DNA of 64,000 nt. It comes from an uncultured Acidobacteriota bacterium. Lineage in GTDB: Bacteria > Acidobacteriota > Thermoanaerobaculia > Multivoradales > DATKCC01. The stretch is from contig CAWIQD010000013.1 in NCBI GenBank assembly GCA_963837945.1, positions 11,707-75,706 on the forward strand. Direction: 5' to 3'. The stretch's first letter is position 1, and every line of letters begins with the position of its first letter. Made by a program: the position numbers and the translations under genes. The notes beneath the pieces were generated by a model. It was not told the origin of the DNA. It was given only the letters and a program-made list of their open reading frames with translations, and did no database searches. This document shows positions 2,968 through 41,435 of the stretch, piece by piece.

Positions 2968-4098
2968 TCAGCGCACGATCGGCGGGCGGGTGAAGTCCTT
3001 GTCCAGGAGGTACAGGTACATCACCGCCATCGAGTCCTGGTCGGCGCCGCTGGTGTTGTCGTAGACACTCACCAGCTCGTACTGGTGGTCCCGGTAGAGC
3101 GGGATGCCCTCCGGGCTCGAGAGGTGGTCGACCCGGTCGATCCCGATCCGGCCGTCGGCGGGGTCGACGCCGGCCCGGAAGACACTCCGGCCGGTGGTCC
3201 GGTCGAGGAGCTCGAGGGACTTGGCGAAGGGGTGCAAATGCACCGCGATGTAGTGGATCGTGGTGTCGAAGGGGAGGTCGAGGAACTTCGTCACCAGGGT
3301 GTGGTTGACCTCGACGCCGGGCTTGACCACCCAGTGGGCGGTGAACCGCTGGCCGAGCGAGTCGAGGTCGGCGTCGCCGTGGACGGCGCTCATCCCGATC
3401 GCACAGCCCGGGCCGTGGACCTGCTGGTCGACGGCGCTCTCCGCCATGCCGTAGACCTGCCCCGGACCGTCGAGCGCCTTGAGCCCCTCGACCGCCGACT
3501 GGAAGAGCGGTTTCATCGGGCGGTCCTTCGGCACGTCCCGGTCGCGGACGTACTCGACGGTCACCCTGTGGCGCACCACGAGCTCCGGGTCGTCCCGGTT
3601 CAGGTTGAGCACCTGGGTGGTCAGGTCGAGCGGCTGGGTCGAGAGGACCGGGATGCCGAAGCCGGGCGGGAACTCGATCTTCTGCTGCCCCTGGGAGAGG
3701 GTGAAGATGCGCCCGGAGATGCCGTGGCGCATCCGGAGCTCCTTCATGTAGGGGGCCGGCTTGACGTCGAGGTTGGCGTGGCACATGTACTCCTGGGAGA
3801 CCTCCGAGCCGTCGGCCGGATCGACCACCTCGGTCTGGTAGCCGGTGATCCACAGCAGCTCGGGCTCGGCCGGGTCGGTCAGGTAGACCTGCTGCTGGCC
3901 GTACGGGCCTTCCATGGAGCGGTACTTCTTGTCGATGTAGTACTCGGGCGAGAGGACGGTCTTGCGGTGCACCGGCGGCGGGGCCACCCGGGAGGCCTCC
4001 CGGGCACCGGCACCCGAGGTCCCGAGGGTGGCGCAGGCGGCGAGGGCGAGGCAGGCGGCGGCGAGCGGGAGAGATCGGCGCATCGGAAGCTCCATCAT
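2968..4098 (-). CDS. Lipoprotein of unknown function
   Basis: Start MMELPMRRSLPLAAACLALAAC, with lipobox LAAC. The body is coherent and not low-complexity. It carries conserved-looking CHANLD, AVHLHPF (HxH) and DSMAVMYLYL segments. The start is ATG 4098, 4095 or 4083. Confidence 0.7.
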   Translation of the reverse strand: MMELPMRRSLPLAAACLALAACATLGTSGAGAREASRVAPPPVHRKTVLSPEYYIDKKYRSMEGPYGQQQVYLTDPAEPELLWITGYQTEVVDPADGSEVSQEYMCHANLDVKPAPYMKELRMRHGISGRIFTLSQGQQKIEFPPGFGIPVLSTQPLDLTTQVLNLNRDDPELVVRHRVTVEYVRDRDVPKDRPMKPLFQSAVEGLKALDGPGQVYGMAESAVDQQVHGPGCAIGMSAVHGDADLDSLGQRFTAHWVVKPGVEVNHTLVTKFLDLPFDTTIHYIAVHLHPFAKSLELLDRTTGRSVFRAGVDPADGRIGIDRVDHLSSPEGIPLYRDHQYELVSVYDNTSGADQDSMAVMYLYLLDKDFTRPPIVR

Positions 4099-4178
4099 AG
4101 CCGCAGCCGGCCGGGGGGGAGCCGGCGGGCGGTGCATTGCTTGATTCCGCCTCTCTACCGCTATATCCTGGCAGCGCC

Positions 4179-7100
4179 ATGGGCCGCCGCTCCACTCCCC
4201 GCTACGCCGAGCTCCGGGCCGCCTCGGCATTCTCTTTCCTGCGCGCCGCCTCGGCGCCCGAGGACCTGGTGGAGCGGGCCGCCGAGCTCGATCTGCCCGC
4301 GGTGGCGCTCACCGACCGCAACGGGGTCTACGGGGCGCCCCGCTTCTACGCCGCGGCGCGCGAGGCGGGGCTCCGAGCGCGGGTCGGGGCGGAGGTGGTG
4401 CTGGCGCCGCCGGCGGGCGCCGGGGCCGGAGCGCGCGAGGCCGGCCGGTCCGGCACCGCTTCCCCGCCCGGAGCGCGCGGCCCCCGCGGGCTGGTCCGGC
4501 CGCCGGAGCCCGCCGCCCCGCGGGCGAGCGAGCCCGAGACCCGCCTCACCCTCCTGGCCGAGAGCCGGGAGGGCTACCGCAACCTCTGCCGGCTGCTGAC
4601 CGCGGCGGCGCTCGGCCGTCCCAAGGGCGAGGCCCGGGCTACCTGGGACCAGGTGGCGGCTCACGCCCGGGGCCTCCACTGCCTGACCGGCGGGTCCGAG
4701 GGACCGGTCGCCCGGGCGCTCGTCGCGCCGGCGGGGGGCGGCGCGCCGGCGGCCCGCCGGCTCCTCGAGCGGCTGGCGGCGCTCTTCCCCGGCCGCCTGC
4801 ACGTCGAGATCCAGCGCCACCGGCTGCGCGACGAGGAGCACCGGAACGCCGCCCTCCTCGACCTCGCCCGCGGCCTGCGGCTGCCGGTCGTCGCCACCAA
4901 CGGGGTGCGCTACGCCCAGGCCGGCGACAAGCCGCTCCACGACGTGCTCACCTCGATCCGCCACGGCACGCCGCTCGACGCCGCCGGACGCCTGCTGGCG
5001 CGCCACCGCGAACGGCACCTGAAGTCCCCGGGAGAGATGGCCGACCTGTTTCCCGACCTGCCGGCGGCCCTCGAGGCCGCCGCCGAGCTCGCCGACCGGC
5101 TCGACTTCACCCTCGAGGACCTGGGCTACCGCTTCCCCGACTTCCCCGTGCCCGCGGGCGAGACGGCGGACTCGTACCTGCGCCACCTCGCCTGGAACGG
5201 CGCCCGCGCCCGCTTCCGGCCCCTGACCGCCCGCGCCCAGGCGCAGATCGAGCGCGAGCTCGCCCTGATCGAGAAGCTCGGCCTGGCCGGCTACTTCCTC
5301 ATCGTCTGGGACCTGGTGCGCTTCGCCAAGCAGGAGGGGATCCTCGCCCAGGGCCGCGGCTCGGCGGCCAACAGCGCGGTCTGCTACGCCCTCTCGATCA
5401 CCGCCGTCGACCCGGTGAAGATGGACCTCCTGTTCGAGCGCTTCCTGTCCGAGGAGCGGGGCGAGTGGCCGGACATCGATCTCGACCTGCCTTCCGGCGA
5501 GCCGCGCGAGAAGGTGATCCAGTACGTCTACCGGCGCTACGGCACGCACGGCGCCGCCATGACCGCCAACGTCATCACCTACCGGGACCGCTCCGCCGCC
5601 CGCGAGGTGGCCAAGGCCCTGGGCTACGCCCCCGCCCAGATCGACCGCCTGGCCAAGACCTTCGGCCGCTGGAGCTACGACCGGAGCCGGGGCGACCAGC
5701 GCTCGTTCGACGGCGAGCTGGCGGCCGCCGGCTTCGATCCGGGCGAGCGCCGGGTGCGCCTGTTCGCCGAGCTCTGGCAGGAGATCCAGCACCTTCCCCG
5801 GCACCTCGGCCAGCACTCCGGGGGCATGGTGATCGCCGCCGGACGTCTCGACGAGGTGGTGCCGCTCGAGCCGGCGGCCATGGAGGGGCGGGTGGTGGTG
5901 CAGTGGGACAAGGACGACTGCGCCGACCTGGGCATCGTCAAGGTCGATCTCCTCGGCCTCGGCATGCTGGGCGCGCTCCAGGAGGTGGTGCCCCTGATCC
6001 GCACCGCCGAGGGCGTCCACCTCGACCTCGCCCACCTGCCACCCGAGGACCCGAAGACCTTCCGCATGCTGCGCGCCGCCGACACCGTGGGCGTCTTCCA
6101 GGTCGAGAGCCGGGCGCAGATCGCCTCTCTGCCCAGGAACCGCCCGGAGCGCTTCTACGACCTGGTGATCCAGGTGGCGATCATCCGCCCCGGCCCGATC
6201 GTCGGCAATCTCGCCAACCCCTACTTCGAGCGCCGCCGGGGGCGCGAGCCGGTGACCTACCCCCATCCCTCGCTCCGGCCGATCCTCGAGCGCACCCTGG
6301 GGGTGCCGCTGTTCCAGGAGCAGATCTTGAAGATCGCCATGGTCGCGGCCGGCTTCACCGGCGGCGAGGCCGAGGAGCTGCGCCGGGCCATGGGCTTCAA
6401 GCGCTCGGTCGACCGCATGCGCCGGATCGAGGAGCGCCTGCGCACCGGCATGGCCGCGCGGGGCATCGTCGGCCGGGTCCAGGACGAGATCGTCCACGGC
6501 ATCACCTCGTTCGCCCTCTACGGCTTCCCCGAGTCCCACGCCGCGAGCTTCGCCCTGATCGCCTACGCCAGCGCCTACCTCAAGGCCCACCACCCCACCG
6601 CGTTCCTGATCTCGCTCTTGAACGCCTGGCCGATGGGCTTCTACCACCCATCCAGCCTGATCCAGGACGCCCGCCGCCACGGCGTCGAGGTGCTCGCGAT
6701 CGACGTCGACCGCTCCGGCTACGGCTGCACCTGGGAGGAGGGCCGGTGCCGGCTGGGGCTGCGCTTCGTCCACGGGCTGCGCCGGGAGGCGGGCGAGCGG
6801 ATCGCCGCCGAGCGCGCGGCCGGCGGTCCCTACGCGAGCGCGGAGGACCTCGGCCGGCGCTCGGCGCTGCGCGAGGACGAGCTCGCCACGCTCGCCGAGC
6901 TCGGCGCCCTGGGCTCGCTCGGCCTCACGCGGCGCGCGGCGCTCTGGCAGGCCGCCCGGGTGGGGCGCCCGGCCGGTCCCCTGCTCGCCGGCGAGCCGGA
7001 CTCGGGGCCCTCGCCGCTCGCCGAGATGACCGCGGTCGAGGAGACGGTCGCCGACTTCCGGGGCTCGTCGCTCACCACCGGCGTCCATCCGATGGCCCAT

Positions 7101-7439: not shown

Positions 7440-7610
7440 GGCGGGAGCGTGCACGCACACGGCCCGGGGGGCGGTGGGGTTTCGGCGGCAGACTGCGCCG
7501 GCGAAACCCCACGCGTCCCCCCGGGCCTGCGTGAACCGGACTCCGGAAGGCTCGGCCCGCGGGCCACAGGAGGGGATGGGGGAGATCGGCGGGCTCGGAC
7601 TCCGGTCCAC

Positions 7611-7831
7611 CCGGCACCGAACCCATGAAGCGGCCGAGCTCTGTCTCGGCCGGGCGAACGCCCAGAGGGGCACCGAACCGCTCCGCCGATCGGCGTTACC
7701 TCCGCCCCGACACCCCAGTTACGTGCCACATCTGGGCGAGGGGCATCGGGTCAATAGGCACCGTCGGGTGCCCCCGCGCCCCGTTCGCCCGGCCGAGACA
7801 GAGCTCGGCCGCTTCATGGGTTGGGTGCCGC
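7611..7831. repeat. REPIN/MITE-like element: a perfect 40-bp inverted pair of the REP-like family A unit
   Basis: 7621-7660 (acccatgaagcggccgagctctgtctcggccgggcgaacg) is the exact reverse complement of 7782-7821. The arms extend to about 50 bp with 2 mismatches. Each arm contains the hairpin CGGCCGAG-N6-CTCGGCCG. Confidence 0.85.
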
Positions 7832-7866
7832 GGCCGACCATGGAGGGCGGAGGGACGGGAGGGGGC

Positions 7867-8175
7867 GTCCCCTTCCCCCCCGTGGGGTGGGAAGGGGATC
7901 GACGGGATGCGGGGGCATCCGGTCAATCGTCCCTTCCCCCCGTGGGGTGGGAAGGGGATCGAGGGGATGCGGGGGGCATCCGGTCAATCGTCCCCTTCCC
8001 CCCCGTGGGGTGGGAAGGGGATCGAGGGGATGCGGGGGGGATCTGGTCAATCGTCCCCTTCCCCCCCGTGGGGAGGGAAGGGGATCGAGGGGATGCGGGG
8101 GGGATCTGGTCAACCGTCCCCTTCCCCCCCTGGGGGTGGGAAGGGGATCGAGGGGATGCGGGGGGCTCTGGTCAG
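7867..8175. repeat. Tandem repeat, 5 units of 60-63 bp (family B), each with a 9-bp hairpin and 5 G-tracts
   Basis: The unit is GTCCCCTTCCCCCCCGTGGGGTGGGAAGGGGATCGAGGGGATGCGGGGGGATCTGGTCAATC. Unit starts are at 7867, 7929, 7990, 8053 and 8116. There are no unique spacers. The last unit overlaps the stop codon of the transporter gene. Confidence 0.9.
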
Positions 8176-9584
8176 TTGAATGCCACGCCTTGAATCACCG
8201 AGGCGATGATCCAGGCGATCGCGAGGGGGCAGACGATCCGGAGCAGGAGCTTCCAGAGCCAGTGATAGCGGAAGGGGCCGCCGCCGGCCTCGAGCTCGTC
8301 CCGGGTCAGCCGGTTGCTCAGGAACCAGCCGGTGAAGGCCGAGATGAAGAACCCTCCGACCGGCAGCATCCAGTTCGATGCCAGGTAGTCCATGACGTTG
8401 AACAGCCCGACCCGCGAGTCGCCCGGCCCGTGGCCCACCGGCGCCCAGTGCGCCAGGGTCGGGCTCGCCCCCAGGGAGTACGCCGCGAAGCCGCCGAGGG
8501 CGGTGATCACCGTGCCCGTGATCCAGGTGGCGCGCCGGCGGCTCCAGCCCCGGTGGTCGATGAAGTAGGAGACCACCACCTCGAGCAGCGAGATCGTCGA
8601 GGTCAGGGCGGCGAAGGCGACCAGCAGGTAGAAGAGCGGCGCCAGGATCGTGCCCAGCGGCAGCTGGTAGAGCATCTTGGGGATCGTCGTGAACAGGATC
8701 GCCGCGCTCTTCGAGAAGGTGTCGGTCCGCTGCGCCTCGGGGACGGTGAAGATGATCGAGAACATGACCACGCAGGCCATGAGCGCGATCAACGTGTCGA
8801 GCACGCAGACCAGGGCGGCGTCGCGGCGGATGGAGTGGTCCCGCGCCACGTACGAGCCGTAGGTGATCATCGCGCCCATGCCGAGCGACAGGGTGAAGAA
8901 CGAGTGGCCCACCGCCTCGAGCACCGCCTGGCGGTCGATCGGGCTGAAGTGGAAGAGGAAGGAGATCGCCTCGTGGAAGCCCGGCGACCAGATCGACACC
9001 ACGCAGAGCAGGGCCAGGATGGCGAAGAGCACGGGCAGGAGGATCTTGGTGACCCGCTCGATCCCCCCCTTGACCCCCATCAGGATCACGCCGATCGTGA
9101 GCAGCATGAAGAACGTGTGGAAGACGAGGGGCAGCCAGCCGCTGGAGACGAACGACACGAACTGCCCCTGGAGATCGTTCGCGACCTCGGGCGGGAAGCC
9201 GCCGATCGACCATCCCACGCACTTGCCGAAGTAGTAGACCGTCCAGCCCGCGACCACCGAGTAGTAGGAGAGGATGATGAAACCGGTGAACACCCCGAGG
9301 TAGCCGACCGCGGCCCACAGCCGGCCACCGGCGACCCCGCGGGCGAGCTCGAGGAAGGCGCTCACGGGGCTCGTCCCGGTGCGCCGGCCGATCAGGATCT
9401 CGGCCATCATGATCGGCGCCCCGATCAGCGCCACCGCCGCCAGGTAGACGAGCACGAACGAGCCGCCCTGGTGGGCGTAGGTGATGTAGGGGAACTTCCA
9501 GATGTTGCCCAGACCGATCGCCGAGCCCGCCGCCGCGACGACGAAGCCCAGGTGACTGAACGAGGCCCGTTTCTGCACTTGCAT
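8172..9584 (-). CDS. Sodium-dependent transporter, neurotransmitter:sodium symporter (SNF/NSS) family
   Basis: N-terminal GSAIGLGNIWKFPY signature, about 12 hydrophobic segments, and a GGGAGGG SD before the ATG at 9584. Confidence 0.9.
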   Translation of the reverse strand: MQVQKRASFSHLGFVVAAAGSAIGLGNIWKFPYITYAHQGGSFVLVYLAAVALIGAPIMMAEILIGRRTGTSPVSAFLELARGVAGGRLWAAVGYLGVFTGFIILSYYSVVAGWTVYYFGKCVGWSIGGFPPEVANDLQGQFVSFVSSGWLPLVFHTFFMLLTIGVILMGVKGGIERVTKILLPVLFAILALLCVVSIWSPGFHEAISFLFHFSPIDRQAVLEAVGHSFFTLSLGMGAMITYGSYVARDHSIRRDAALVCVLDTLIALMACVVMFSIIFTVPEAQRTDTFSKSAAILFTTIPKMLYQLPLGTILAPLFYLLVAFAALTSTISLLEVVVSYFIDHRGWSRRRATWITGTVITALGGFAAYSLGASPTLAHWAPVGHGPGDSRVGLFNVMDYLASNWMLPVGGFFISAFTGWFLSNRLTRDELEAGGGPFRYHWLWKLLLRIVCPLAIAWIIASVIQGVAFN

Positions 9585-9700
9585 ACCCTCCCGGAGAACA
9601 ACCGGTCCCCACCCCTCGAGAGACAGAAGACCAAGACGCCCTGGAAAACGACCTCCGGGATTGTAACCGAGCCTTCGCGGCCTCGCCGTGCGGGCGGGTC

Positions 9701-10531
9701 TCAGGCTCCTTCGACCCGCTCCGGGTGAGAGTAGACGTTGAACCGTCCGTCGCGGACGAAACCCACCAGCGTGACCCCGAAGCGCTCGGCCACCTCCACC
9801 GCCAGGCTGGTCGGCGCCGAGACCGCGCAGACCATCGGGATGCCCGCCGCCACCGACTTCTGGAGGATCTCGAAGCTCGCCCGGCCGCTGACCAGCAGCA
9901 CGTGCCGGTCGAGGCGGCGCTCGGGCCCGAGATCGCCGTCCAGCACGGCCCGGCCGATCAGCTTGTCGAGGGCGTTGTGCCGGCCCACGTCCTCCCGGAC
10001 CGCCCGGCGGGTGCCGGTCTCGTCGAACAGGCCGGCGGCGTGGAGCCCCCCGGTGGCGTCGAAGCCCCGCTGGGCCGTCCGCAGCGCGCCGGGCAGCTCC
10101 GAGATCAGCGACGGGGCGAGCCGGGGCCCGGGCGCGACCGGCTCGCAGCCGGCGACCAGCAGCTCGTCGAGCGCCGCCCGGCCGCAGACCCCGCAGGCGC
10201 TGCCGGTGAAGAAGTGGCGCTCGAGCGAGCGCAGGTTGGGCAGACGGCGGGCGGCGAGCTCGATCTCCACCACGTCGCGCTCGAGCCCGGTCTCCGGGTC
10301 CACCTCGGTGCCCGCCGCGATGCCCGCGATCAGCTCCCGGTCGCGCACCAGGCCCTCGCCGTAGAGGAACCCGACCGCCAGCTCCTCGTCGCAGCCGGGC
10401 GTGCGCATCGTCACCGCCAGCGTCCGGCGCTCGCCGCCGGCCGCCACCCGGACCTCGAGCGGCTCCTCGACCGCCACCGCGTCGAGGCGCTCGAGAGAGG
10501 GGCGCGGGCCCATCTCCCGGATCGTCACCAT
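9701..10531 (-). CDS. fdhD: Formate dehydrogenase accessory sulfurtransferase FdhD
   Basis: FFTGSACGVCGRAAL and EDVGRHNALDKLIG motifs. Only the last 276 codons of the 502-aa ORF are FdhD-like, starting at ATG 10531 (MVTIREMG). Confidence 0.88.
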   Translation of the reverse strand: MVTIREMGPRPSLERLDAVAVEEPLEVRVAAGGERRTLAVTMRTPGCDEELAVGFLYGEGLVRDRELIAGIAAGTEVDPETGLERDVVEIELAARRLPNLRSLERHFFTGSACGVCGRAALDELLVAGCEPVAPGPRLAPSLISELPGALRTAQRGFDATGGLHAAGLFDETGTRRAVREDVGRHNALDKLIGRAVLDGDLGPERRLDRHVLLVSGRASFEILQKSVAAGIPMVCAVSAPTSLAVEVAERFGVTLVGFVRDGRFNVYSHPERVEGA

Positions 10532-10560
10532 CGCCGGCGCGTCGCCGGAGCCGCGCTGGA

Positions 10561-11454
10561 TCAGGGCAGGTCCTCCCGCGGCGGCGGCGGCACGGCCGCG
10601 GTCGGGAGCTCGTCCCGAGGCGGCAGGGCGACCCGATCGGTCGTGCTCATGGAGATAGTTTCTATCACTCTCCAGCGGCCGGCGAGCCGCGGCCAGAGCT
10701 CGAAGGCGACCAGCACGGCGGCGAGCGCCGCCGGGCCGCCCGCGCTCGGTCCTCCGACCGCGGCGAAGGGCGCCGCCACGAGCGCCACGGCCAGGTAGGC
10801 CGCCGCCGTCGCCACCAGCCCCCCGACGACCAGGACCACGATCCGGGCCGGAGCTCGCGGCGGCCGGAACAGGACCCGGGACAGCAGGCAGCCGGCGGCG
10901 AGCGAGCCGACCTGCGGGTAGGAGCCTCCGGCCCACCACAGGCCGAGGACGGCGACCCCGGCGGCGCGCCGCAGCCAGGGCTCCCAGAGCGGCAGGCGCG
11001 GGAGGCCGAAGCCGGCGACCAGGGCGACGGCCAGGCCCACCGCCACGCCTCCGGCCACGTCGCGCAGGAAGTGGACTCCCAGGAGCACCCGGGTCGCCGC
11101 CACCAGGGCCACGAGGGCCGCCGCCAGGGCCCACACCCACCGCCGCCGCGAGCGGAGAGCCAGAAACCCCCAGACCGCCGCGGTGTTCTGGGCGTGCCCG
11201 CTCGGCCACGAAGCCCCCGTGGCGGTGGCGCGGACCCAGCGCGAGACCGCGGCACCCCCGGCCTGAAAGGGGCGCGGCTCCCGCACCAGGGCCTTGAGCC
11301 AGGTGTTGGTGCCGAACGAGGCCGCGAGCACCAGGCCGAGGCGGCGACCGGCCTCGGGCGAGACCAGCCAGAACACGAGGGCGACGACGCCCAGGTGGAC
11401 GTAGCCCGAGCCGAGCCAGGTGAGGCCGAAGAGAATGCGGTGGGCGAGGTCCAT
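10561..11454 (-). CDS. PAP2-family membrane phosphatase
   Basis: The three PAP2 motifs are present: KALVREPRP, SWPSGHA and TRVLLGVHFLRDV. The protein has multiple TM segments. Confidence 0.85.
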   Translation of the reverse strand: MDLAHRILFGLTWLGSGYVHLGVVALVFWLVSPEAGRRLGLVLAASFGTNTWLKALVREPRPFQAGGAAVSRWVRATATGASWPSGHAQNTAAVWGFLALRSRRRWVWALAAALVALVAATRVLLGVHFLRDVAGGVAVGLAVALVAGFGLPRLPLWEPWLRRAAGVAVLGLWWAGGSYPQVGSLAAGCLLSRVLFRPPRAPARIVVLVVGGLVATAAAYLAVALVAAPFAAVGGPSAGGPAALAAVLVAFELWPRLAGRWRVIETISMSTTDRVALPPRDELPTAAVPPPPREDLP

Positions 11455-20845: not shown

Positions 20846-20902
20846 CCCGCGATCAGTCTACCCGCGCTCGCGGCGGGCCGGGGGTTCGGAGCCCGCGTCG
20901 CC

Positions 20903-21107
20903 GGTCGCCCGGCCGAGACAGAGCTCGGCCTGGGGACCGTTTAGGGCGAGGATTCGGCGACGGCTTCGGTGGGGCGCTCGGTGCTCCCCGAACCGGTCGC
21001 CCGGCCGAGACAGAGCTCGGCCGCTTCATGGGTTCGGAGGGCAGGGGAAGTGCTTCATCCCTTCGGAGGGCAAGGGCGCTTGAAGCGGCCGACCTCTGCG
21101 TCGGCCG
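20903..21107. repeat. Cluster of three REP-like family A copies
   Basis: GGTCGCCCGGCCGAGACAGAGCTCGGCC occurs at 20903-20930. A full copy with GCTTCATGGGT is at 20995-21033. A degenerate inverted copy is at 21081-21107. Confidence 0.8.
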
Positions 21108-21110
21108 TGC

Positions 21111-21215
21111 CGCGGAGTCCGACCCGGGGCAGCGCGGTCCATGCCGAGGCGCGGCTCCTCCGCCCCGAAGTTCTGGCAAGCCGCGCCGTCCGCAAGCGCG
21201 AGAGCCCCCGCCCCG
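21111..21215. repeat. Family C repeat, copy 1 (105 bp)
   Basis: About 88% identical by eye to 22283-22387, in the same orientation (CGCGGAGTCCGA...GCGCGGTCCATGCCGAGGCGCGGCTCCTCCG...GCCGCGCCGTCCGCAAGCGCG.GAGCCCCCGCCCCG). Confidence 0.8.
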
Positions 21216-21979: not shown

Positions 21980-22389
21980 GAATGGGGCTCCCGGAGGCGG
22001 CGGTTCGCGCTCCACAACGCAAACGCGCGCCGGAAGATTCTCCGGCCGCCCAGCGTCCGAGTCGAGATTCCTCGACGTCAGGCCGCGCGTCGCGCGACCT
22101 TCGCTCGGAATGACAAAAAGGGGGAGGGGCGGGGGCTCCCGCCCGGAGGACGTCGAGGACCGCGCTCGACGAGACCCACCGCACGCAGCCCGCGCCGGAA
22201 CGAGGGCAATGCCGAGGAGTCCGACCCCGGAGGGGCGGGGGCTCCCGAGCGGCGGCGTCATGGACCGCGCTCAACGAGGCATCGCGGAGTCCGAGCCGAC
22301 CGAGCGCGGTCCATGCCGAGGCGCGGCTCCTCCGGCCCGCAGTGCGAGAAAGCCGCGCCGTCCGCAAGCGCGGGAGCCCCCGCCCCGGC
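21980..22389. repeat. Repeat-filled 410-bp intergenic region (family C copy 2 at 22283-22387, plus internal direct repeats)
   Basis: GGAGGGGCGGGGGCTCCCG...GGACCGCGCTC.ACGAG occurs twice, at about 22121-22185 and 22228-22280. A related copy lies at 32100-32180. Confidence 0.7.
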
Positions 22390-24887: not shown

Positions 24888-25829
24888 ATGACCCCGATCT
24901 CCGCGTCGCATCCATCCTCCGTCTTCCTGGGATTCGGCCTGTGCCTGATGCTCGCCGCCGGCTGCCGGGCGACCGAGCCGGCCGCCAACGGCGAAACGGC
25001 GCCGAGCACCGAGGCCGCGGGCGACTACGCCGCCGCGATGGCCCGCGAGCACAAGGACGACCGCCCCGAGCCGAGCGCCGCGGCCCAGACCGCGCCGGCG
25101 GTGCCGGTGACCGGCGACCCGGTGGTCTACGGCTCGATCGGCGACCAGGAGATCACGGGGTATCTCGCTCGGCCCACGCACGCCGACCATCCGCTCCCCG
25201 GCCTGATCGTGATCCACGAGTGGTGGGGCTTGAACGACAACATCCGCGCCATGACCCGGCGGCTCGCGGGCGAGGGCTACGTGGCGCTCGCCGTCGACCT
25301 CTACGGCGGCCAGACCGCCTCGACCCCCGCCGAGGCCCGGGAGCTCATGGGCCGGATCGACCCGGAGCGGGCGATCGAGAACCTGCGCAAGGCGCGCACC
25401 CACCTCGCCGACCGGCTGTCGTCGACCGGCGACCGGGGCGACCGGATCGGCGTGATCGGCTGGTGCTTCGGCGGCGGCTGGTCCCTGCAGGCCGCCCTCG
25501 ACATGCCGGACTCGATCGACGCGGCGGTCGTCTACTACGGCCACCTGACGACCGACCCGGCCGAGCTCGGCAAGCTCGGCGCTCCGCTCATCGGCTTCTT
25601 CGGCGCCGACGACGGCTCGATCCCGGTCGACCAGGTGCGGACCTTCCAGCAGACGCTCGAGAAGCTGGGCAAGGACGTGGAGATCCACGTCTACGACGGC
25701 GCGGGTCACGCCTTCGCCAACCCGTCGGGCACCGGCTATCGGCCCGCGGCGGCCGAGGACGCATGGAACCGGACGGTCGCCTTCCTGGAGCACAACCTCC
25801 AACACCCCGGCGGGACACCGGCCGAGTGA
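24888..25829 (+). CDS. Dienelactone hydrolase family lipoprotein
   Basis: Lipobox LAAGC, IVIHEWWGLN, nucleophile elbow GVIGWCFGG, and a C-terminal GAGHAF. Confidence 0.85.
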   Translation: MTPISASHPSSVFLGFGLCLMLAAGCRATEPAANGETAPSTEAAGDYAAAMAREHKDDRPEPSAAAQTAPAVPVTGDPVVYGSIGDQEITGYLARPTHADHPLPGLIVIHEWWGLNDNIRAMTRRLAGEGYVALAVDLYGGQTASTPAEARELMGRIDPERAIENLRKARTHLADRLSSTGDRGDRIGVIGWCFGGGWSLQAALDMPDSIDAAVVYYGHLTTDPAELGKLGAPLIGFFGADDGSIPVDQVRTFQQTLEKLGKDVEIHVYDGAGHAFANPSGTGYRPAAAEDAWNRTVAFLEHNLQHPGGTPAE

Positions 25830-26233
25830 CCCGGGTTGCGCCGCGCTCCGCGTGGGTCCCGGGCGGCCTCGCCGTCGCCCTGGTCCTGGCGGCGGCCGCC
25901 GTCGCGGGCTGCTCGCCCCCCCCGCCGGCCGGCGAGGTCCACCGCTACACCGTCCGCGGCGAGGTGGCCGCCCTCCCCCGCCCCGGCCAGCCGGGCTCGG
26001 AGCTCCTGATCCACCACGAAACGGTGCCGAAGTTCGTCGACTCCGGTGGGCAGACGGTGGTCATGGAGTCGATGACCATGCCCTTCCCGCTGGCCGACGG
26101 CGTGAGCCTCGGCGGCATCGACCGGGGCGACAAGGTGGAGATGACGTTCGAGGTCCGCTGGAACGGCGCGCCCCCCCTCCAGGTCACCGCGATCCGCGAG
26201 CTCCCGCCCGACACCCGGCTCGATTTTCACTGA
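25826..26233 (+). CDS. CusF-like copper-binding periplasmic lipoprotein
   Basis: Lipobox VAGCS. HHETVPKF...VVMESMTMPFPLAD...GDKVEMTFEV resembles the CusF family. GTG 25826 overlaps the upstream stop in GTGA. Confidence 0.65.
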   Translation: MTRVAPRSAWVPGGLAVALVLAAAAVAGCSPPPPAGEVHRYTVRGEVAALPRPGQPGSELLIHHETVPKFVDSGGQTVVMESMTMPFPLADGVSLGGIDRGDKVEMTFEVRWNGAPPLQVTAIRELPPDTRLDFH

Positions 26234-26532: not shown

Positions 26533-29500
26533 CTACCGGTCCTTTTTTCCGGTGAGGGGCTTGACGAAGAGGCCGTCCTCGCGCCGGAACCCAGCGCCGG
26601 TGTAGAGGGCGTCGTTGGTGGCCGAGTCGCTTCCGGCCGGGGTCACTTTGACCTGGTGGTATCCATCGCGAGCGAGCGTCTCGAGCAGCTTCGTCAGGAA
26701 CTCCTCGCCGATGCCCAGCCCCCAGAGGCCGGGGGCGACGAAGAAATCGCGGCCGTGGTCCCAGGTCGCCACCTTTCCGGAGTCCGAGGTTTCCAGGATC
26801 TCGACCAAACCGGCGTGGAGATCGCCTCGCCCCGACGGCATGGGCAGGAAGAACCCATAGAGCCGGGTGCCCGAGGGTGGAACTTTGTCGCCGCGCGCCT
26901 TGCGAGCCTCCAGCTCGACCTTCCAGCAGGTGCTCGCGTGGCCCCCGGAAGCCTTGCCATGCAAGGGCTTGACGGAGCCCTTGGAAAGGTCCCAGCCGAG
27001 CCCGAAGGCTTCCGCCATGAACCTCGTGAACTCCTGCGAGTGGAACGGCGCGAGCCAGGGCCACCAACCGCGGAAGGTCGGAGAGGACGCCCAGGCGCCG
27101 AAGCGGTTCAACCAGCCCATGTACCGCGGGTTGCTCGGCGCCCAGTCGTCTTTCCCGAAGCCGGTCCGCAGACAGACGGCCTCCATGATCCGGACGGCCT
27201 CGCGCACCGCGGGAAGGGCGGCGAGCACGTCTTTCTTCGACGCGCGGGCGGCGACTCGGTCGTCCCCGAACCGGATCGAGACCTCGCGGCGGAGCCTCTC
27301 GAGCCCGGGCGCCTCGAGCCGGTCGCCGAGGCGGACCCACGCCGCGTTGAGCTCCTCGATCACGGGCTCTTCCTCGGGCAGCGGGGGCCAGCTGTAGCGG
27401 GCCCGGAGGAAGAGCCGGGCGCAACTCGGCGACTTCCCCTTCAGGTTCGCGACCAGGCTTTCGACCGGCTCGAAGGCCTCCTCGACCACGTGCTCGCCCA
27501 GGCGGCGGTACGACTCCCACTGGGCTTCGTCGTAGAACTGGTCGATGGTGGTTTCATGGGGGAAGCGGAGGTTGCGGCGGGCGTACTGAGCGATGTCGGC
27601 CGGCTCGTCGCCGGTCAGCGTGGGCTTGACGTAGAGGAGGATTCCGACATCTCCCTTCCCGCCCGGCGCTGCGGGGGGATAGTAGATGTCTCCGGCCACC
27701 ATCGGCTGGCGCGAGAGGCCGTCCCGGCCCGACCCCGGGCGCAGCGGCGAGACGTCGATCTTGATCTCGATGCCGAAGTCCTCGCGCACCCGTCGCACGG
27801 CGTTTCCGAAGTCGTCGAACGCGCGCTCCGGATCGGCGCCGCAATCGGAAAGCAGGATGAAGCGGCAGTGCCGGCGGACGAGCTCGTAGAGCGCCAGGTT
27901 CTCGAAGTGGGCGCCGTCGGAGAGATAGACCCAGGGCCCGGTCGCATGGGAGAGGCCGAGGAGCTCCTGGAGGAAGAGGTACCCCGGAGCCCGGCCCCGG
28001 CGGTCCGCATCGGGGTGGGCGAGCCAGAGCCCGAGGCGCAGCCCCAGAGCGGTGAGCAGGAAGGTCACCGCCTGGCCGAAGCGCATCGAGAGCTGGCCCA
28101 TGTGGGAGTTGAAGGCCGCACCGGAAGCGGTGATCGCGCTCCCCAGGGTCGGGCGCTCCGCGCCCTCGACCCAGGGGCGCCAGCGGTCGCCGACCTGGAA
28201 CCCCAGCTTCGACAGAACGGCGCTCGCCGCCCCGCGGTGGAAACTGCCGAGGGGATCGCCCGCCAGGTCGTTCGCGGCGCAGCAGACCAGGTGGAGCGGC
28301 CGGCCCTCGGCCAGGTCGGTGAGCGCGACGTCATCGTGCTCGCACTCCTCGGTCGCGCGCGTGTACCTCGGAGAGTTGGAAGCCCCAAGGTAGGCGCGCA
28401 CCAGGCGGCTGCGGTAGAAGGAGTGGAAGCCGATCTCGTGCGGGTCGACCGTCAGGCTGAAGAGCAGGCCGATGCTGGCGGCGATCGCAGCGCCCCCGGC
28501 GCCCCAGGGCCCCGCGGCGTGGGTGAGGAGCACCAGGCCGCTCACCACCGTGGCGACCGCCGCGCCGAGCGTCAGGTAGGCAAGCGCCTGGAGGACCCAC
28601 CGCTTGCCGAGCACGCTCAGCCGGCCACCGCTCGGCTTGCTCGCTTGCCCCGACAGGAGACGCCGCACCCAGGTGAAGACGCCGCCACCGGCGGTGCTCA
28701 CCCCGGCGGCGCTCAGGACGCCGGCCGGCCCGCCGCCGGCCAGGAGCTGGCCGAGGATCCAGACCGCTCCCACCACCGCCCAGGCGGCGGCGCAGAGCAC
28801 CATCCGGGCGAGGACCCGGTCTCGGGCTCCGCGGTGGCTGCGCGCGGCAGGAGGGAGCCCGGCCCGAACGCTGAAGAGCCTGCGGCTGATCACGATCAGG
28901 AGCACCGTCACCAGCCAGGCCACGACCGGCAGCAGCACCGCCCCGGCGCCCACCCCGAGGCCCTGCGCCTGGAGCGGGCAGAGCAGGAGCCAGGCCGGTA
29001 GCGCGAAGCCCCAGAGGAAGGACCAGACCGCCCCGGCGACGAGGGCCGTGAGGATCGCGTAGGCGAAGAAGGTGCCGGCGGCTCGGTTCGCCGGCTCCTC
29101 CCCGCGATGCCACCAGAGGTGCTCGAAAAACCACTGCACGCCGAACGTCGCGAGGGCGAGGATGAGGCCGCTGAGCGGCGCCAGGCCCCGGACGAGAAGG
29201 AGGCGGCCCGGACGTTCCCAGACCAGCAACCAGTCGAGAGACCACCAGGCGAGGAGCAGGACGACGAGGACCGCCACCGCCGTCGCGATGCAGGGCAGCA
29301 CGCCGCCCACCAGGGCGGTGACCAGGCGGCCGGTCTCGGTGCTCAAGAGCTGCAGGCGCGGGCGCAGGAAGTTGCCGAACTCGCGAAGGTGGCGGACCTC
29401 CGGCGGCTCGGGACGGTCGCGCGTCGGCCCGTCCTGCGGGAAGAGCTCGCCCGGTCGCCGGCCCTCGCGCGACCTCCAGGCACTCCAGAAGCCTCCGATA

Positions 29501-29859
29501 TAGCCACCGCCGGAGACGGTCGCGAGGTAGTGGAAGCAGGCGAGCAGCCCCTTGCGGTGAAGCTCCTGCAGGAGCCCGAGGTTGAACGTGGCGCTGCGGA
29601 TCCCGCCCCCCGACAGCGCGAGGCCGAAGAGGTCGCGAGCCGGCGCCTCGCGTCGCCACTCCGGCGGTCGGGGTGCCTCAGCGGCCTCGGGCTCCCGCGG
29701 CACGTCCTCCCCGGCGCCTACGGGAAAGAGACAGCCTCGAAGCTTGCGCCAGCGGCCGACCCTCGCCTTGGGTCGGGGACCGGCAGCAGGCCTCTCGAGC
29801 TCCCCGAGGTCCTCGAGCTCCCTCTTGACGAGCTTCCCCCAGGGTCGGCCCGCGCTCAC
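26533..29859 (-). CDS. Membrane-embedded patatin-like phospholipase fused to a C-terminal GNAT domain (1108 aa)
   Basis: LSGGGIRS (oxyanion hole) and ATVSGGGY (nucleophile) come first. About 8 TM helices follow, then YLSDGAHFENL (the Asp box). The C-terminal end carries GLWGLGIGEEFL...NDALYTGAGF (GNAT motif A). GTG 29859 overlaps the upstream stop; GTG at codon 53 is the alternative start. Confidence 0.8.
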   Translation of the reverse strand: MSAGRPWGKLVKRELEDLGELERPAAGPRPKARVGRWRKLRGCLFPVGAGEDVPREPEAAEAPRPPEWRREAPARDLFGLALSGGGIRSATFNLGLLQELHRKGLLACFHYLATVSGGGYIGGFWSAWRSREGRRPGELFPQDGPTRDRPEPPEVRHLREFGNFLRPRLQLLSTETGRLVTALVGGVLPCIATAVAVLVVLLLAWWSLDWLLVWERPGRLLLVRGLAPLSGLILALATFGVQWFFEHLWWHRGEEPANRAAGTFFAYAILTALVAGAVWSFLWGFALPAWLLLCPLQAQGLGVGAGAVLLPVVAWLVTVLLIVISRRLFSVRAGLPPAARSHRGARDRVLARMVLCAAAWAVVGAVWILGQLLAGGGPAGVLSAAGVSTAGGGVFTWVRRLLSGQASKPSGGRLSVLGKRWVLQALAYLTLGAAVATVVSGLVLLTHAAGPWGAGGAAIAASIGLLFSLTVDPHEIGFHSFYRSRLVRAYLGASNSPRYTRATEECEHDDVALTDLAEGRPLHLVCCAANDLAGDPLGSFHRGAASAVLSKLGFQVGDRWRPWVEGAERPTLGSAITASGAAFNSHMGQLSMRFGQAVTFLLTALGLRLGLWLAHPDADRRGRAPGYLFLQELLGLSHATGPWVYLSDGAHFENLALYELVRRHCRFILLSDCGADPERAFDDFGNAVRRVREDFGIEIKIDVSPLRPGSGRDGLSRQPMVAGDIYYPPAAPGGKGDVGILLYVKPTLTGDEPADIAQYARRNLRFPHETTIDQFYDEAQWESYRRLGEHVVEEAFEPVESLVANLKGKSPSCARLFLRARYSWPPLPEEEPVIEELNAAWVRLGDRLEAPGLERLRREVSIRFGDDRVAARASKKDVLAALPAVREAVRIMEAVCLRTGFGKDDWAPSNPRYMGWLNRFGAWASSPTFRGWWPWLAPFHSQEFTRFMAEAFGLGWDLSKGSVKPLHGKASGGHASTCWKVELEARKARGDKVPPSGTRLYGFFLPMPSGRGDLHAGLVEILETSDSGKVATWDHGRDFFVAPGLWGLGIGEEFLTKLLETLARDGYHQVKVTPAGSDSATNDALYTGAGFRREDGLFVKPLTGKKDR

Positions 29860-31151
29860 GGCTGCCCTCCCCAGCCGCTCGAGTCGGGCATCTGGCAGGC
29901 GAAGACGCCGGAGTCGAAGACCTGGCCGAGCACCACAATGTCGGCGGACGACCGCGGCGTGCCCCTGAGCCGAAGGGCCACCGAGGCCGCGCTGATCAGG
30001 CCGCCTTCGTCCCGGAGGATCCGGCGGCGCAGCGAGGCGCCGTCCACCACCGAGACCTCGACGACCTCGGAGGGCGACGGCACCTCCGGCGCCTGCATGT
30101 GCTGGAGGAAGCGCCGGAGGTCCGGGTGCGCCGCCGCGAGGAGCCGGGTCTTTTCCGCATTCGCCCAGGTCAGGTTGTCGGGGTTGGTCTTCCCCGGCAT
30201 CTCGATCACCCGCGAAACGAGGAGGGCCCCGTCGGCCGTCACGTCGAAGACGTGGATCGCACCGCCCGCCCCGGCGGCCACGTAGAGGCGGTCCGAACAT
30301 CCTCCGCGGACGGCGCCGGAGGAGGCTGCGGGGCAGGCTCGATAGGCGATCCCGTTCGCTTCCGGGATCTTCGGGTGCTCGCCGCCGGCGGCGACGATCG
30401 GCGCGGTCTTCCACGTGCCGCGGCACCGGCCGTCGGATCTCGCGACGCAGTCGAAGTGGTCGATCTTCGAGCTCGGCCGGAGGCCGGTGGCATCGAGCAG
30501 AGTGGCCAGCTTGCCCCGGGGCGGGTCGGTCACCCACAGGTCGCCGTCGGGGAGGGCCACGAGGTCGTTGGCGTGGGTGAGGATCGCGGGGTCGGCGAGG
30601 CGCTGGAGGAACTCCAGCCGGTACCTCCCGACCCGAAAGACCTCGACGCTCGTGATCGGTCCGCTGCCGACGCCGCGCAGGCCGGCCGCCGAGAAGCAAC
30701 CACGTTTCGGTTCCCGGTCAGCGGCGTCGTGGTGGTTGATCACGTAGAGAAGCCAGGAGCCCACGTTGCCGTTCTCGTCCTTCGCCTGGACCAGGTCGAT
30801 GCCGTGGGGATGGAAGGAGCAGTCGTCGCGACCGACGAGGGCGAGCTCGTGCGCCGTACCATCATTTTTCAGAGGCACCGACCAGATCCCGCCTCGTGGC
30901 TCAGGCTCAGTGCGCCGGTCCTGGGACGAGACGAGGAGCCGCTCGTCGGCCTGGTCGAACACCAGATCCTCGGGCCCCACGACGGAGGGAGCGAGGTTCC
31001 AGCAGGCAGGCGGCGGTGCGGGGTCGCAGGCTGCTCCGGGCCGCGTGCATGCCAGGGCCTGGGCGGCGAAGACGCCCACCAGGACGAACGCGAGAATCCC
31101 TCTCCACCCCTCGCGGGAACGCCGAGTGCTACGCGACGCAGCCGGGCTCAT
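29856..31151 (-). CDS. Paraoxonase/arylesterase (PON)-like six-bladed propeller, secreted or anchored
   Basis: Motifs FHPHGID, LYVINHH, SVEVFRV, HANDLV, ANGIAY, PDNLTW, PSEVVEV and VLGQVF...C occur in order, colinear with the arylesterase family. An N-terminal hydrophobic anchor is present, and a GGAGG SD precedes the ATG at 31151. Confidence 0.75.
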   Translation of the reverse strand: MSPAASRSTRRSREGWRGILAFVLVGVFAAQALACTRPGAACDPAPPPACWNLAPSVVGPEDLVFDQADERLLVSSQDRRTEPEPRGGIWSVPLKNDGTAHELALVGRDDCSFHPHGIDLVQAKDENGNVGSWLLYVINHHDAADREPKRGCFSAAGLRGVGSGPITSVEVFRVGRYRLEFLQRLADPAILTHANDLVALPDGDLWVTDPPRGKLATLLDATGLRPSSKIDHFDCVARSDGRCRGTWKTAPIVAAGGEHPKIPEANGIAYRACPAASSGAVRGGCSDRLYVAAGAGGAIHVFDVTADGALLVSRVIEMPGKTNPDNLTWANAEKTRLLAAAHPDLRRFLQHMQAPEVPSPSEVVEVSVVDGASLRRRILRDEGGLISAASVALRLRGTPRSSADIVVLGQVFDSGVFACQMPDSSGWGGQP

Positions 31152-31361
31152 GAAGCCTCCGTGGCGGGCTTTCGAGGTGACCGGGCAGCGGTCCCCAAAG
31201 CCCGCCTGCGCCACCTTGGACGGACCCGCCCAGCGAATTCCAACGTCTTCGTGATCGGGCGAATCACTTCCGCTTCTCCGATCCCCGGGTCAACGAGGCC
31301 CAGGTTGCGGCGGCGGGCGGTCCGATGGCACGATCGGCCGCCGAAGGGAGGCTCGCCGATC

Positions 31362-31963
31362 ATGGACGACGACAGGACAGGGCTCGATTCGAGCTCGGTC
31401 GGGGACCCGGCGCGCTACCGAGCGCTGGAGGAGCTGGAGCGGAGCTTCGCCGCCTACGGCCGCGGGCCGCGGGACGAGGGCCGGGTGGCGCTCATCGTGC
31501 GCAAGGCCGAGGGCGGCCGCCGCGAGACGCCGGAGCGGGTGGTCCTGACGCCCGAGGACGGGGTGCCGGGAGACGCCTGGGGGCGCTGGCGCTCGCCCAA
31601 CCCCGAAACCCAGCTCGCGGTCATGGAGCTCGGCGTCGCGGAGCTGGTCGCGAACGCCCAGCCGCTGGCCCTCTCCGGCGACAACCTGGTCCTCGACCTC
31701 GACCTGTCGGCGGAGAACCTGCCGCCCGGCAGCCGGCTCCGCGCCGGCGCGGCGCACCCTCGAGGTCACGCCCAAGCCCCCACACCGGCTGCAAGAAGTT
31801 CCACGCCCGCTTCGGGGCCGACGCCCTGCGCTTCGTCTCGCGGCCGGACCTGCGCCAACGCAACCTACGCGGCATCTACCTGCGCGTGGTCGAGGCCGGT
31901 GAGGTCGCGGTGGGCGATCCGGTGGCCGTGGTCTCCCGGCCGGCGGCCATCGCCGGCAAGTAG
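31362..31963 (+). pseudogene. MOSC-domain protein, disrupted by two +1 insertions in C-runs
   Basis: The N-part runs in the frame of ATG 31362 up to ...SRLRAGAA. LEVTPKP is in the +1 frame (31759-31779). HTGCKKFHARFGADALRFV...GDPVAVV is in the +2 frame, ending at 31963. The extra C residues are near 31757-31760 and 31777-31780. Confidence 0.75.
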
Positions 31964-32010
31964 GCCGGGCCGAGGGGCCGGTGTCGGGGAGGGTTTGCAG
32001 GCTCCCGAAC

Positions 32011-32049
32011 CGTTCGGCCGGCCGAGACGGAGCTCGGCCGCTTCATGGG
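32011..32049. repeat. REP-like family A copy
   Basis: The sequence is CGTTCGGCCGGCCGAGACGGAGCTCGGCCGCTTCATGGG. It is followed by family C-like sequence up to about 32290. Confidence 0.8.
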
Positions 32050-32290
32050 CCTGTTGCGGTGGGCGAAGGTGATGCCGGTTGAAGGGGTCCCTCCCGCCCA
32101 AACGGGCAACCCCGAGGAGTCCGACCCCGGAGGGCCGGGAGCCCCGATCCGGGGACGTCGTGGACCGCGCACTCGAAGGCTTGCTGGAGTGCGATCCCGC
32201 CCAAGCGCGGGCCACGCCGAGGCGCGACTCCTGCGCGCCACCGTCCGACCGAGTCGCGCCGGTCCCCAGGGCGGGGCTCCCGGCCCGGCC

Positions 32291-41050: not shown

Positions 41051-41232
41051 CGGGTGAAGTCCTCGAGGTGATGGACGGAGAGTGCCGAACGGCCACGCCC
41101 GGCGGCCACCGGCATAGTCTACCGCCCTCTCGAAGTGCCCGGCACCTCCCCCGGCGGCCGGCGGCCGGACGCCCGTGGTCGGCGGCTGTGCCGGTGGGGA
41201 TCTGTCGGTACGGCCCGGTGCTGCCCATGCCG

Positions 41233-41335
41233 CTTGGCCGGCCGAGACGGAGCTCGGCCGCTTCCTGCGTCCGAGGACCTCCGGAGAAGCAATCCCGGGT
41301 GAAGCGGCCGAGCTCTGCCTCGGCCGGGCGAACGC
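41233..41335. repeat. Inverted pair of REP-like family A copies (REPIN-like, about 30-bp spacer)
   Basis: 41233-41267 (CTTGGCCGGCCGAGACGGAGCTCGGCCGCTTCCTG) and 41298-41335 (GGTGAAGCGGCCGAGCTCTGCCTCGGCCGGGCGAACGC) are in opposite orientation. Confidence 0.8.
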
Positions 41336-41435
41336 TCCCGCAGGCACCGGGACTGCCACTCCCGGCGAGCCGCCTGGCCGCGCTGGGCCGCCGCAGCGGC
41401 GGTGGCGCTCTTGGCTGGCGGCTCGACGCTCTGCG

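Follow-up and report, generated by a model that had tools for sequence, protein, structure and literature searches.

A translationally coupled gene pair of Thermoanaerobaculia, predicted to combine an exported paraoxonase-type propeller with a polytopic membrane acyl hydrolase

What might a paraoxonase-type β-propeller and a membrane-embedded lipase have to do with each other, that the gene for the second should begin inside the stop codon of the gene for the first? The question is raised by two neighbouring minus-strand genes, here called A and B, in a 64-kb stretch of contig CAWIQD010000013.1 with a GC content of ~72%, which was analysed as a whole and to which we refer as the window. A sequence-only reading of this DNA had seen in the pair a dedicated two-gene module for lipid or lactone processing, or for membrane targeting, built from a serum paraoxonase/arylesterase-like protein and a fusion of patatin and GNAT domains. 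We are highly confident of what the individual parts of A and B are; that they constitute an operon specific to Thermoanaerobaculia, in which an exported enzyme of the paraoxonase (PON) type and a polytopic acyl hydrolase of the inner membrane would process membrane lipids, is the reading we prefer, with roughly even confidence.

The two genes are joined by an overlap of four nucleotides, the GTGA at 29856-29859 already pointed out in the sequence-only reading, whose coordinates and frames proved correct: the GTG start of B (29859-29857) overlaps the TGA stop of A (29858-29856), and a Shine-Dalgarno motif, GGAGGG, lies 5 nt before the GTG (Table 1). An NTGA overlap with an upstream purine-rich, Shine-Dalgarno-like motif is kept in seven loci (the window, L001-L003, L008, L010, where it reads TTGA, and L011), in support of translational coupling of A to B. 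GC content at third codon positions (GC3) is 0.88 in A and 0.90 in B, where it is uniform along the open reading frame (ORF), and at second positions (GC2) ~0.53 in both; this is the signature of a high-GC genome and marks A and B as genuine coding regions. No consensus sites emerged when the surroundings of the pair were scanned for promoters and terminators, a result that is uninformative at 72% GC.

By profile, model and catalytic residues, A belongs among the six-bladed propellers of the PON family and has the full catalytic set, and Ca2+-dependent lactonase or arylesterase activity is predicted for it. Every motif quoted in the sequence-only reading is present and in the stated order (FHPHGID 113-119, LYVINHH 135-141, SVEVFRV 168-174, HANDLV 193-198, ANGIAY 265-270, PDNLTW 324-329, PSEVVEV 360-366 and VLGQVF..C 407-419), and its assignment to the serum paraoxonase/arylesterase family is borne out by profile comparison, by structure search and by the catalytic residues. 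A profile of 65 relatives finds PON1 in the PDB at E 1e-36 and from end to end (PON1 residues 31-351 of 355), and one restricted to the clade of A (18 close, PF01731-negative relatives) finds it at 7e-20, with DFPase a distant second. When the AlphaFold2 (AF2) model of A (pLDDT 89) is searched with Foldseek, the ten best PDB matches are all PON1 (E ~1.5e-17, TM-score 0.75-0.79), and other propellers, all at ≥1e-7, follow after a gap of ten logs. The alignment equates the catalytic Ca2+ ligands E61, N195, N266, D325 and N326 with PON1 E53, N168, N224, D269 and N270, the structural-Ca residues D62 and D196 with D54 and D169, and the His dyad H116/H140 with H115/H134; each of these is kept in 61-64 of the 65 family members. 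The family is small, with just 70 detectable relatives of A among 5.8 billion proteins. Pfam and NCBIfam give A itself only weak NHL, SGL and YbhE-type/6-phosphogluconolactonase matches, and its more distant relatives (E 1e-25 to 1e-33) bear matches to PF01731 and SGL. PON-like lactonases have reportedly been described from bacteria.

A is also predicted to be exported. Its N-terminus is rich in Arg, has a hydropathy peak at 18-36 (the N-terminal anchor of the sequence-only reading) that coincides with an AF2 helix at 16-33, and continues into ALA-C35; a Cys is found at the position of C35 in 40 of the 65 relatives, in many of them within a clear lipobox, and others have a signal anchor. The disulfide pair C50/C419 corresponds to C42-C353 of PON1, with C50 kept in 57 and C419 in 60 of the 65 sequences. 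Together, the conserved disulfide and the N-terminal signal, be it a signal peptide, a lipobox-like Cys or a signal anchor, imply that A folds outside the cytoplasm and is tethered to the membrane. PON1 is tethered to high-density lipoprotein via its uncleaved signal helix, which the tethering of A resembles.

Within the patatin superfamily, the hydrolase of B is best placed with the cPLA2-like enzymes, with Ser116 and Asp648 as its predicted catalytic residues. Its elements SGGGIRS (83-89), TVSGGG (114-119) and YLSDGAHFENL (645-655) are indeed split, as had been noticed, with 532 residues between S116 and D648 in place of the ~600 first estimated. Pfam Patatin (PF01734) reaches 28.8 bits against a cut-off of 27.7, over residues 80-134 and only positions 1-53 of the 191 in the profile, so that the patatin-type assignment of the sequence-only reading is supported at threshold by Pfam as well as by cPLA2 enzymes as the top profile and Foldseek matches. 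Invariant across 69 aligned B sequences are S83-G-G-G-x-R88, T114, S116-G-G-G, S647-D648 and dozens of further residues. The oxyanion loop S83-G84-G85-G86-I-R88 aligns to the GGGxR loop of cPLA2, and in the AF2 model S116 lies between strand 111-114 and helix 117-130, and S647-D648-G649 directly after strand 643-647. The nucleophile motif is a variant, T-V-S-G-G, in which an invariant Thr replaces the first Gly of G-x-S-x-G; the equivalence of D648 with cPLA2 D549 comes from the Foldseek superposition, not from a sequence alignment. The best PDB match of the B family profile is cPLA2-delta (E 0.0011), for the N-terminal Ser half only, and for the Asp half, the transmembrane (TM) bundle and the helical region this search returned only ion-channel and GPCR noise. 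The AF2 model of the whole protein (pLDDT 84.9, pTM 0.86) assembles both hydrolase halves into one domain, and Foldseek places cPLA2-alpha (787 columns, probability 1.0) and cPLA2-delta (probability 0.99) at the top for the whole 1108-residue model, over ~790-810 columns and with weak scores (E 0.011-0.03, TM-score 0.33-0.39); weak matches to PlpD, VipD and ExoU were found as well. For relatives of the catalytic core that have no TM helices, precomputed matches to PF01735 (cPLA2-type) exist, and one of these relatives (L100, see below) aligns to both hydrolase halves.

Between these halves lie the ~8 hydrophobic helices that had been noticed after the Ser half, which AF2 places at residues 174-213, 221-250, 261-285, 298-330, 337-375, 378-404, 413-449 and 451-470. 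Hydropathy supports seven of the eight; helix 6 (380-402) is Gly-rich and weakly hydrophobic. As the two hydrolase halves meet in the model, an even number of spans is required. The loops show a consistent charge bias, with a mean of 13.8 Lys+Arg in loops 2-3, 4-5 and 6-7 versus 2.2 in loops 1-2, 3-4, 5-6 and 7-8, and the even-numbered loops are the richer in all 69 sequences. In line with the positive-inside bias and with an N-terminus that is charged and has no signal sequence, the topology predicted for B has eight spans, with both termini and both the Ser-Asp and the GNAT domains in the cytoplasm, which is where acyl-coenzyme A (acyl-CoA) is available; the loops predicted to face the periplasm have just 4-16 residues. 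Foldseek matches of the bundle to MhsT and Nramp (probability ≤0.1) were ignored.

C-terminal to the hydrolase follows a helical region (residues 801-960) for which no database match was found and in which N918, W923 and W933 are invariant across the 69 sequences, and then a domain with a predicted GNAT fold. The assignment of the latter is supported by its fold and by conserved segments resembling motif A (PGLWGxGIGE) and motif B (LYxxAGF); it presumably binds CoA and may be catalytic. Over the C-terminal ~150 residues of the B model, Foldseek finds many GNATs, among them SSAT, GCN5, NatC and Tb11.01.2886, at probabilities of 0.99-1.0, and in an alignment W-G-L-G-I-G-E falls on the G-x-G found in RimI and 1Y9K. 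G1044, L1045, W1046, G1049 and G1051 are conserved at ≥90%, and the leading R/Q of the GNAT motif A (R/Q-x-x-G-x-G/A) is replaced by L/W.

The B family is very large. In an exhaustive HMMER scan of 1.84 billion cluster representatives (clusters at 50% identity), 5,964 fell at E≤1e-30 and 11,217 at E≤1e-10. The full-length homologues listed, more than 100 with 1050-1250 residues and the same order of parts, come from Thermoanaerobaculia, Gemmatimonadota, Longimicrobiales and Rhodothermales, as well as from isolate genomes of Corallococcus and Archangium. Thousands of full-length homologues of B, like the PON1 matches of the A-family profiles, put the described features far outside what chance could produce. 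Many members extend the architecture at the N-terminus: relatives of 1300-1480 residues (P0207, P0209, P0214, P0230, P0232, P0240, P0245, P0248, P0262 and others) share an extra module of ~250 residues. It has a conserved D..EN motif and four TM helices, has no match in Pfam, and preserves the predicted orientation of B. A further relative, P0062 (1364 residues), has a domain of the metallo-β-lactamase fold (PF00753, E 6e-26), another hydrolase fold known for lactonases, before its patatin half; no second case was found among the 14 extended relatives scanned, and we do not use this apparent one-off as evidence. To our knowledge, no member of the B family has been characterised.

The A-B pair is essentially confined to Thermoanaerobaculia. 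A scan of 185,579 species-representative genomes for A, made with an 18-sequence alignment and A-specific peptide patterns and thus liable to miss distant relatives, yielded ten loci, eight of them in metagenome-assembled genomes (MAGs) of Thermoanaerobaculia/Acidobacteriota; in all seven of these eight that could be assessed, B lies immediately downstream of A on the same strand. The other two are more distant PON-like genes in Myxococcales and Enterobacterales MAGs, without B. On three long contigs whose flanks differ throughout, the A homologue, at 69% (L001), 39% (L002) and 41% (L003) identity to that of the window, ends four nucleotides inside the B homologue; over the related genomes with a co-located pair, identities of A range from 38 to 70%. 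At least 20 A matches are paired with B matches, by adjacent locus tags or a putatively common contig, and in two close relatives of B (L097 and L099) the A gene is present but was truncated or missed by gene callers. The clade of A was found almost only adjoining B, and from locus to locus A and B lose identity to the window in step, as expected for co-inheritance. Two further observations concern these loci. In the MAG contigs L012 and L016 the homologues of A and B are broken into several frames, which suggests assembly indels rather than pseudogenes. Downstream of B, genes for T2SSE/PilB-type ATPases occur in L002 (11605-12783), L098 (9318-11685), L097 (12726-15382) and L099 (13694-14847), in L098 together with T2SSF and PilS; the window has no such genes, and this is probably lineage synteny.

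Anecdotal, independent support for a functional connection comes from the neighbours of more distant, PF01731-positive relatives of A on a few long contigs, where a PON-like gene adjoins a patatin-type gene in two of four cases. In L100, a 584-residue protein with a lipoprotein signal is encoded 28 nt downstream of the PON-like gene; it aligns to residues 78-168 and 567-795 of the B hydrolase, has no GNAT domain, and has a soluble segment of 146 residues where B has a stretch of 398 containing the TM bundle, which shows that the bundle was inserted into a soluble core that existed before it. In L101, a classical patatin of 308 residues (3870-4796) ends 5 nt before the PON-like gene (4802-5749), and 1.7 kb downstream of the latter lies a gene (7461-10749) for a protein of more than 1,290 residues with two patatin domains and a hydrophobic middle.

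As we picture the system, A would be an exported, disulfide-bonded, Ca2+-dependent propeller outside the cytoplasm, with lipophilic lactones or esters as its most likely substrates, hydrolysed on the outer side of the inner membrane, and ribosomes finishing A would re-initiate on B because its start lies inside the stop codon of A. In B, the eight-helix bundle would replace the soluble segment of its relatives and hold the active site against the membrane on its cytoplasmic side. From there, the enzyme would most likely deacylate or transacylate glycerolipids or lysolipids of the membrane. Acyl- or acetyl-CoA is presumably bound by the GNAT domain, which may N-acylate a product, regulate the enzyme or sense acyl-CoA. 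A would then add a periplasmic step to an autonomous lipid remodelling or repair by B, with one common lipid pool for both in Thermoanaerobaculia. We consider the chances that A and B belong to one shared pathway, with substrates of this kind, to be evenly balanced.

Several findings weigh against this picture. At the level of the domains, the PF01731 profile finds no match in the A protein of the window alone at E≤1, and all GNAT profile matches of B lie below their Pfam cut-offs (Acetyltransf_7, _1 and _10 at E 1e-3 to 3e-2, the best at 17-20 bits against cut-offs of 20.7-27), with sub-threshold matches in 6 of 13 family members when the C-terminal sub-alignment is scanned; the GNAT fusion proposed in the sequence-only reading is supported by fold and motif-like segments, not by the Pfam cut-offs. 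At the level of the locus, B is solitary in Corallococcus, Archangium and Gemmatimonadaceae (L004-L006), one close relative of B (L098) has no A, and an A-like gene is missing from all of 80 metagenomic loci of B, so that conservation of the pair as neighbours, which the sequence-only reading had put forward as a check, applies to Thermoanaerobaculia, where it persists with varied flanks, and fails for the B family elsewhere. All-against-all clustering of the neighbours of more than 90 B loci gave no recurrent partner besides A in its clade. Since it is found nearly everywhere without A, B does not need A, and is best seen as an autonomous enzyme to which A was added in one lineage. The distant PON-like genes at L102/L103 and L015 have no patatin neighbour. 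Finally, the catalytic sites of A and B are predicted on opposite faces of the membrane, the periplasmic loops of B are very short, and a direct hand-over of substrate is not obvious: with A outside and the domains of B in the cytoplasm, any joint action must cross or use the membrane. A lipid might pass via the TM bundle, products might flip spontaneously, or the two genes might merely be regulated jointly. The boldest of these options, a bundle that is more than an anchor and serves as a conduit, or scramblase-like groove, for lipids or lysolipids between the periplasmic PON site and the cytoplasmic Ser-Asp and GNAT sites, strikes us as a long shot.

The same findings feed the most serious alternative to a joint lipid-processing operon, namely that A and B have a common operon and separate functions, A as an independent periplasmic lactonase and B as an independent membrane lipase, with nothing in common but the promoter and the translational coupling acquired in an ancestor of Thermoanaerobaculia. 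Quorum-quenching and lactone-degrading roles have been described for bacterial PON relatives, and A might act in quorum quenching or lactone catabolism. Solitary B genes in nearly all lineages, PF01731-positive relatives of A that occur without B, and the different compartments predicted for the two proteins all fit such a division. Against it, the adjacency and the four-nucleotide overlap persist down to 38-41% identity of A and amid completely different flanks, the clade of A occurs almost only beside B, and two unrelated PON-like genes also adjoin patatin-type genes. We judge separate functions to be possible but the less probable outcome.

Much less likely is an anti-phage, abortive-infection or toxin module, in which the patatin would destroy membranes on being triggered, in the manner of CapV, or be delivered into other cells like ExoU; CapV and ExoU had been named in the sequence-only reading as examples of membrane-attacking patatins. 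Patatin domains are effectors in cyclic-oligonucleotide-based antiphage signalling systems (CBASS) and serve as secreted toxins, and B is embedded in the membrane. Yet PADLOC matched neither A nor B; no cyclase, sensor, immunity or secretion/chaperone genes lie nearby, the flanks being of a housekeeping kind; the B family is very large, spans phyla and is represented by a single chromosomal gene; and eight TM helices make secretion implausible. The effector analogy is thus without support, and what remains of the dedicated module then proposed is a conserved, coupled pair in one clade, which is not general to B. That the ORF of B is an artefact, two or three genes fused by an assembly or frameshift error, would recall the MOSC-like gene of the window that is broken by frame changes (see below) and the frameshifts in some related MAG loci (L012 and L016), and is the least credible reading of all. 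It is countered by the full-length homologues with the same part order in many phyla and in the Corallococcus and Archangium isolates, which exclude an assembly chimera, by an AF2 model that joins both hydrolase halves in one domain, by the size of the family, and by the uniform GC3 along the ORF; B is one real gene.

The pair is of interest mainly for drawing attention to the B family, whose ~6,000 clusters, from Acidobacteriota, Gemmatimonadota, Myxococcota and others, are mostly annotated as hypothetical. Clues to what such proteins do are rare, and the conserved PON-type gene coupled to B in Thermoanaerobaculia is one. Animal PON1 is a membrane- or lipoprotein-anchored lipolactonase linked to the handling of oxidised lipids, and enzymes of the cPLA2/iPLA2 type cut out damaged acyl chains. 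Paired in a bacterium, PON and cPLA2-type enzymes would make it possible to test whether a partnership of the two in lipid repair is ancient. Should the bundle indeed act as a conduit, the pair would be a new kind of device for the repair or remodelling of envelope lipids, and the B family an unrecognised major class of lipid-editing enzymes. For annotation, our results correct a toxin or defence reading of these genes.

Table 1. Positions of the A-B pair, its parts and two convergent neighbours in the window.
Feature	Position	Strand	Description or basis
Gene A	29856-31151	minus	431 aa
A, residues 1-36	31044-31151	minus	Arg-rich N-region, hydrophobic helix, ALA-C35; hydropathy, AF2, relatives
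A core, predicted six-bladed propeller, residues 50-420	29892-31004	minus	PON1 alignment and conservation in the 65-member family
A-B coupling junction	29856-29870	minus	GGAGGG 29865-29870, 5-nt spacer, GTG start of B over TGA stop of A
Gene B	26533-29859	minus	1108 aa
B hydrolase, N-terminal half, residues 75-170	29350-29637	minus	Pfam Patatin, cPLA2-delta profile match, invariant residues
B predicted 8-TM bundle, residues 174-470	28450-29340	minus	AF2 helices, hydropathy, charge bias
B hydrolase, C-terminal half, residues 478-800	27460-28428	minus	D648 in S-D-G-A, Foldseek, alignment to TM-less relative
B helical region, residues 801-960	26980-27459	minus	HPxYxGWxNRFGxWA..PxFRxWWPWL; leads into GNAT core; AF2 helices
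B predicted GNAT-fold domain, residues 961-1108	26536-26979	minus	Sub-threshold Pfam, Foldseek, conserved Gly
CusF-like protein	25829-26233	plus	Converges, with the dienelactone hydrolase gene, on the 3' end of B
Secreted dienelactone-hydrolase-family protein	24888-25829	plus	PF01738, E 1e-54

The pair is flanked by genes for a DUF4412 protein, a MOSC remnant, the CusF-like protein, the dienelactone hydrolase, an aminotransferase and BipA. Synteny with the dienelactone hydrolase and CusF-like genes is found in L001, not in L002 or L003, so that these two are probably unrelated to the pair. The MOSC-domain gene (31360-31963, plus strand) is divergent from A and readable only with two frame changes near 31740-31790, through frames 31152, 31153 and 31151 in turn; its C-terminal piece matches PF03473 (26.4 bits). 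Two explanations are at hand, a pseudogene or homopolymer errors of the kind typical of long-read MAGs; the closest relative, L001, has no gene at this position. An interspersed family resembling repetitive extragenic palindromic (REP) sequences or miniature inverted-repeat transposable elements (MITEs), with the hairpin core GGCCGAGACAGAGCTCGGCC, and a longer repeat of 100-200 nt occur at 7612-7830, 20884-21037, 31993-32053 and 41213-41349, as well as at 21111-21215, 22204-22387 and 32104-32288. One copy occupies the gap between the DUF4412 gene and the MOSC remnant, a short way upstream of the A-B operon. In a tandem array at 7866-8174, a G/C-rich, palindromic unit of 63 nt is present five times, with 94% matches; as whole units repeat without spacers, it is not CRISPR-like.

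On the evidence of sequence and models, the catalytic folds of all three domains are already known, while their arrangement appears to be undescribed: our literature search found no account of a TM-interrupted patatin/cPLA2-GNAT protein or of its pairing with a PON, in agreement with the statement of the sequence-only reading that it knew of no such system. Set beside PON1 (PDB 1V04; PF01731), A has the same predicted six-bladed propeller, Ca2+ ligands, His dyad, disulfide and N-terminal hydrophobic anchor; it differs in its low identity (~20%), in extra insertions that bring it to 431 residues versus 355, in the bacterial lipoprotein-type signal frequent in its family, and in its translational coupling to a membrane lipase. 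With cPLA2-alpha and -delta (PDB 1CJY and 5IZ5; PF01735), B has in common the GGGxR loop, a Ser between strand and helix, an Asp in D-G-x and a large insertion between Ser and Asp. This insertion is a soluble cap or lid in cPLA2 and a predicted 8-TM bundle in B; B furthermore has no C2 domain, has a GNAT domain fused at its C-terminus, carries T-V-S-G-G in place of G-x-S-x-G/S, and is matched weakly (Foldseek E 0.011, profile E 0.001). ExoU, VipD, PlpD, CapV and RssA belong to the same superfamily and follow the same catalytic dyad logic, but are soluble, secreted or autotransported proteins of 300-700 residues, without TM insert or GNAT domain. The C-terminal domain of B resembles GNATs such as SSAT (2FXF) and RimI (5ISV) in its β4-α3-β5-α4 core, a GxGxG-type motif A and a motif B-like LYxxAGF, and stands apart from them through sequence matches below all curated thresholds and the unique Trp-rich helical region that precedes it. 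As for the overall design, the bundle of B has no detectable homology to the membrane domains of LplT-Aas or MprF, and its predicted chemistry is that of a cPLA2-type hydrolase, not of an acyltransferase or aminoacyl-transferase. By analogy only, B nonetheless recalls these systems, in which a polytopic membrane domain is fused or coupled to cytoplasm-facing, acyl-handling domains (the synthase domain of MprF being GNAT-like) and links both faces of the membrane.

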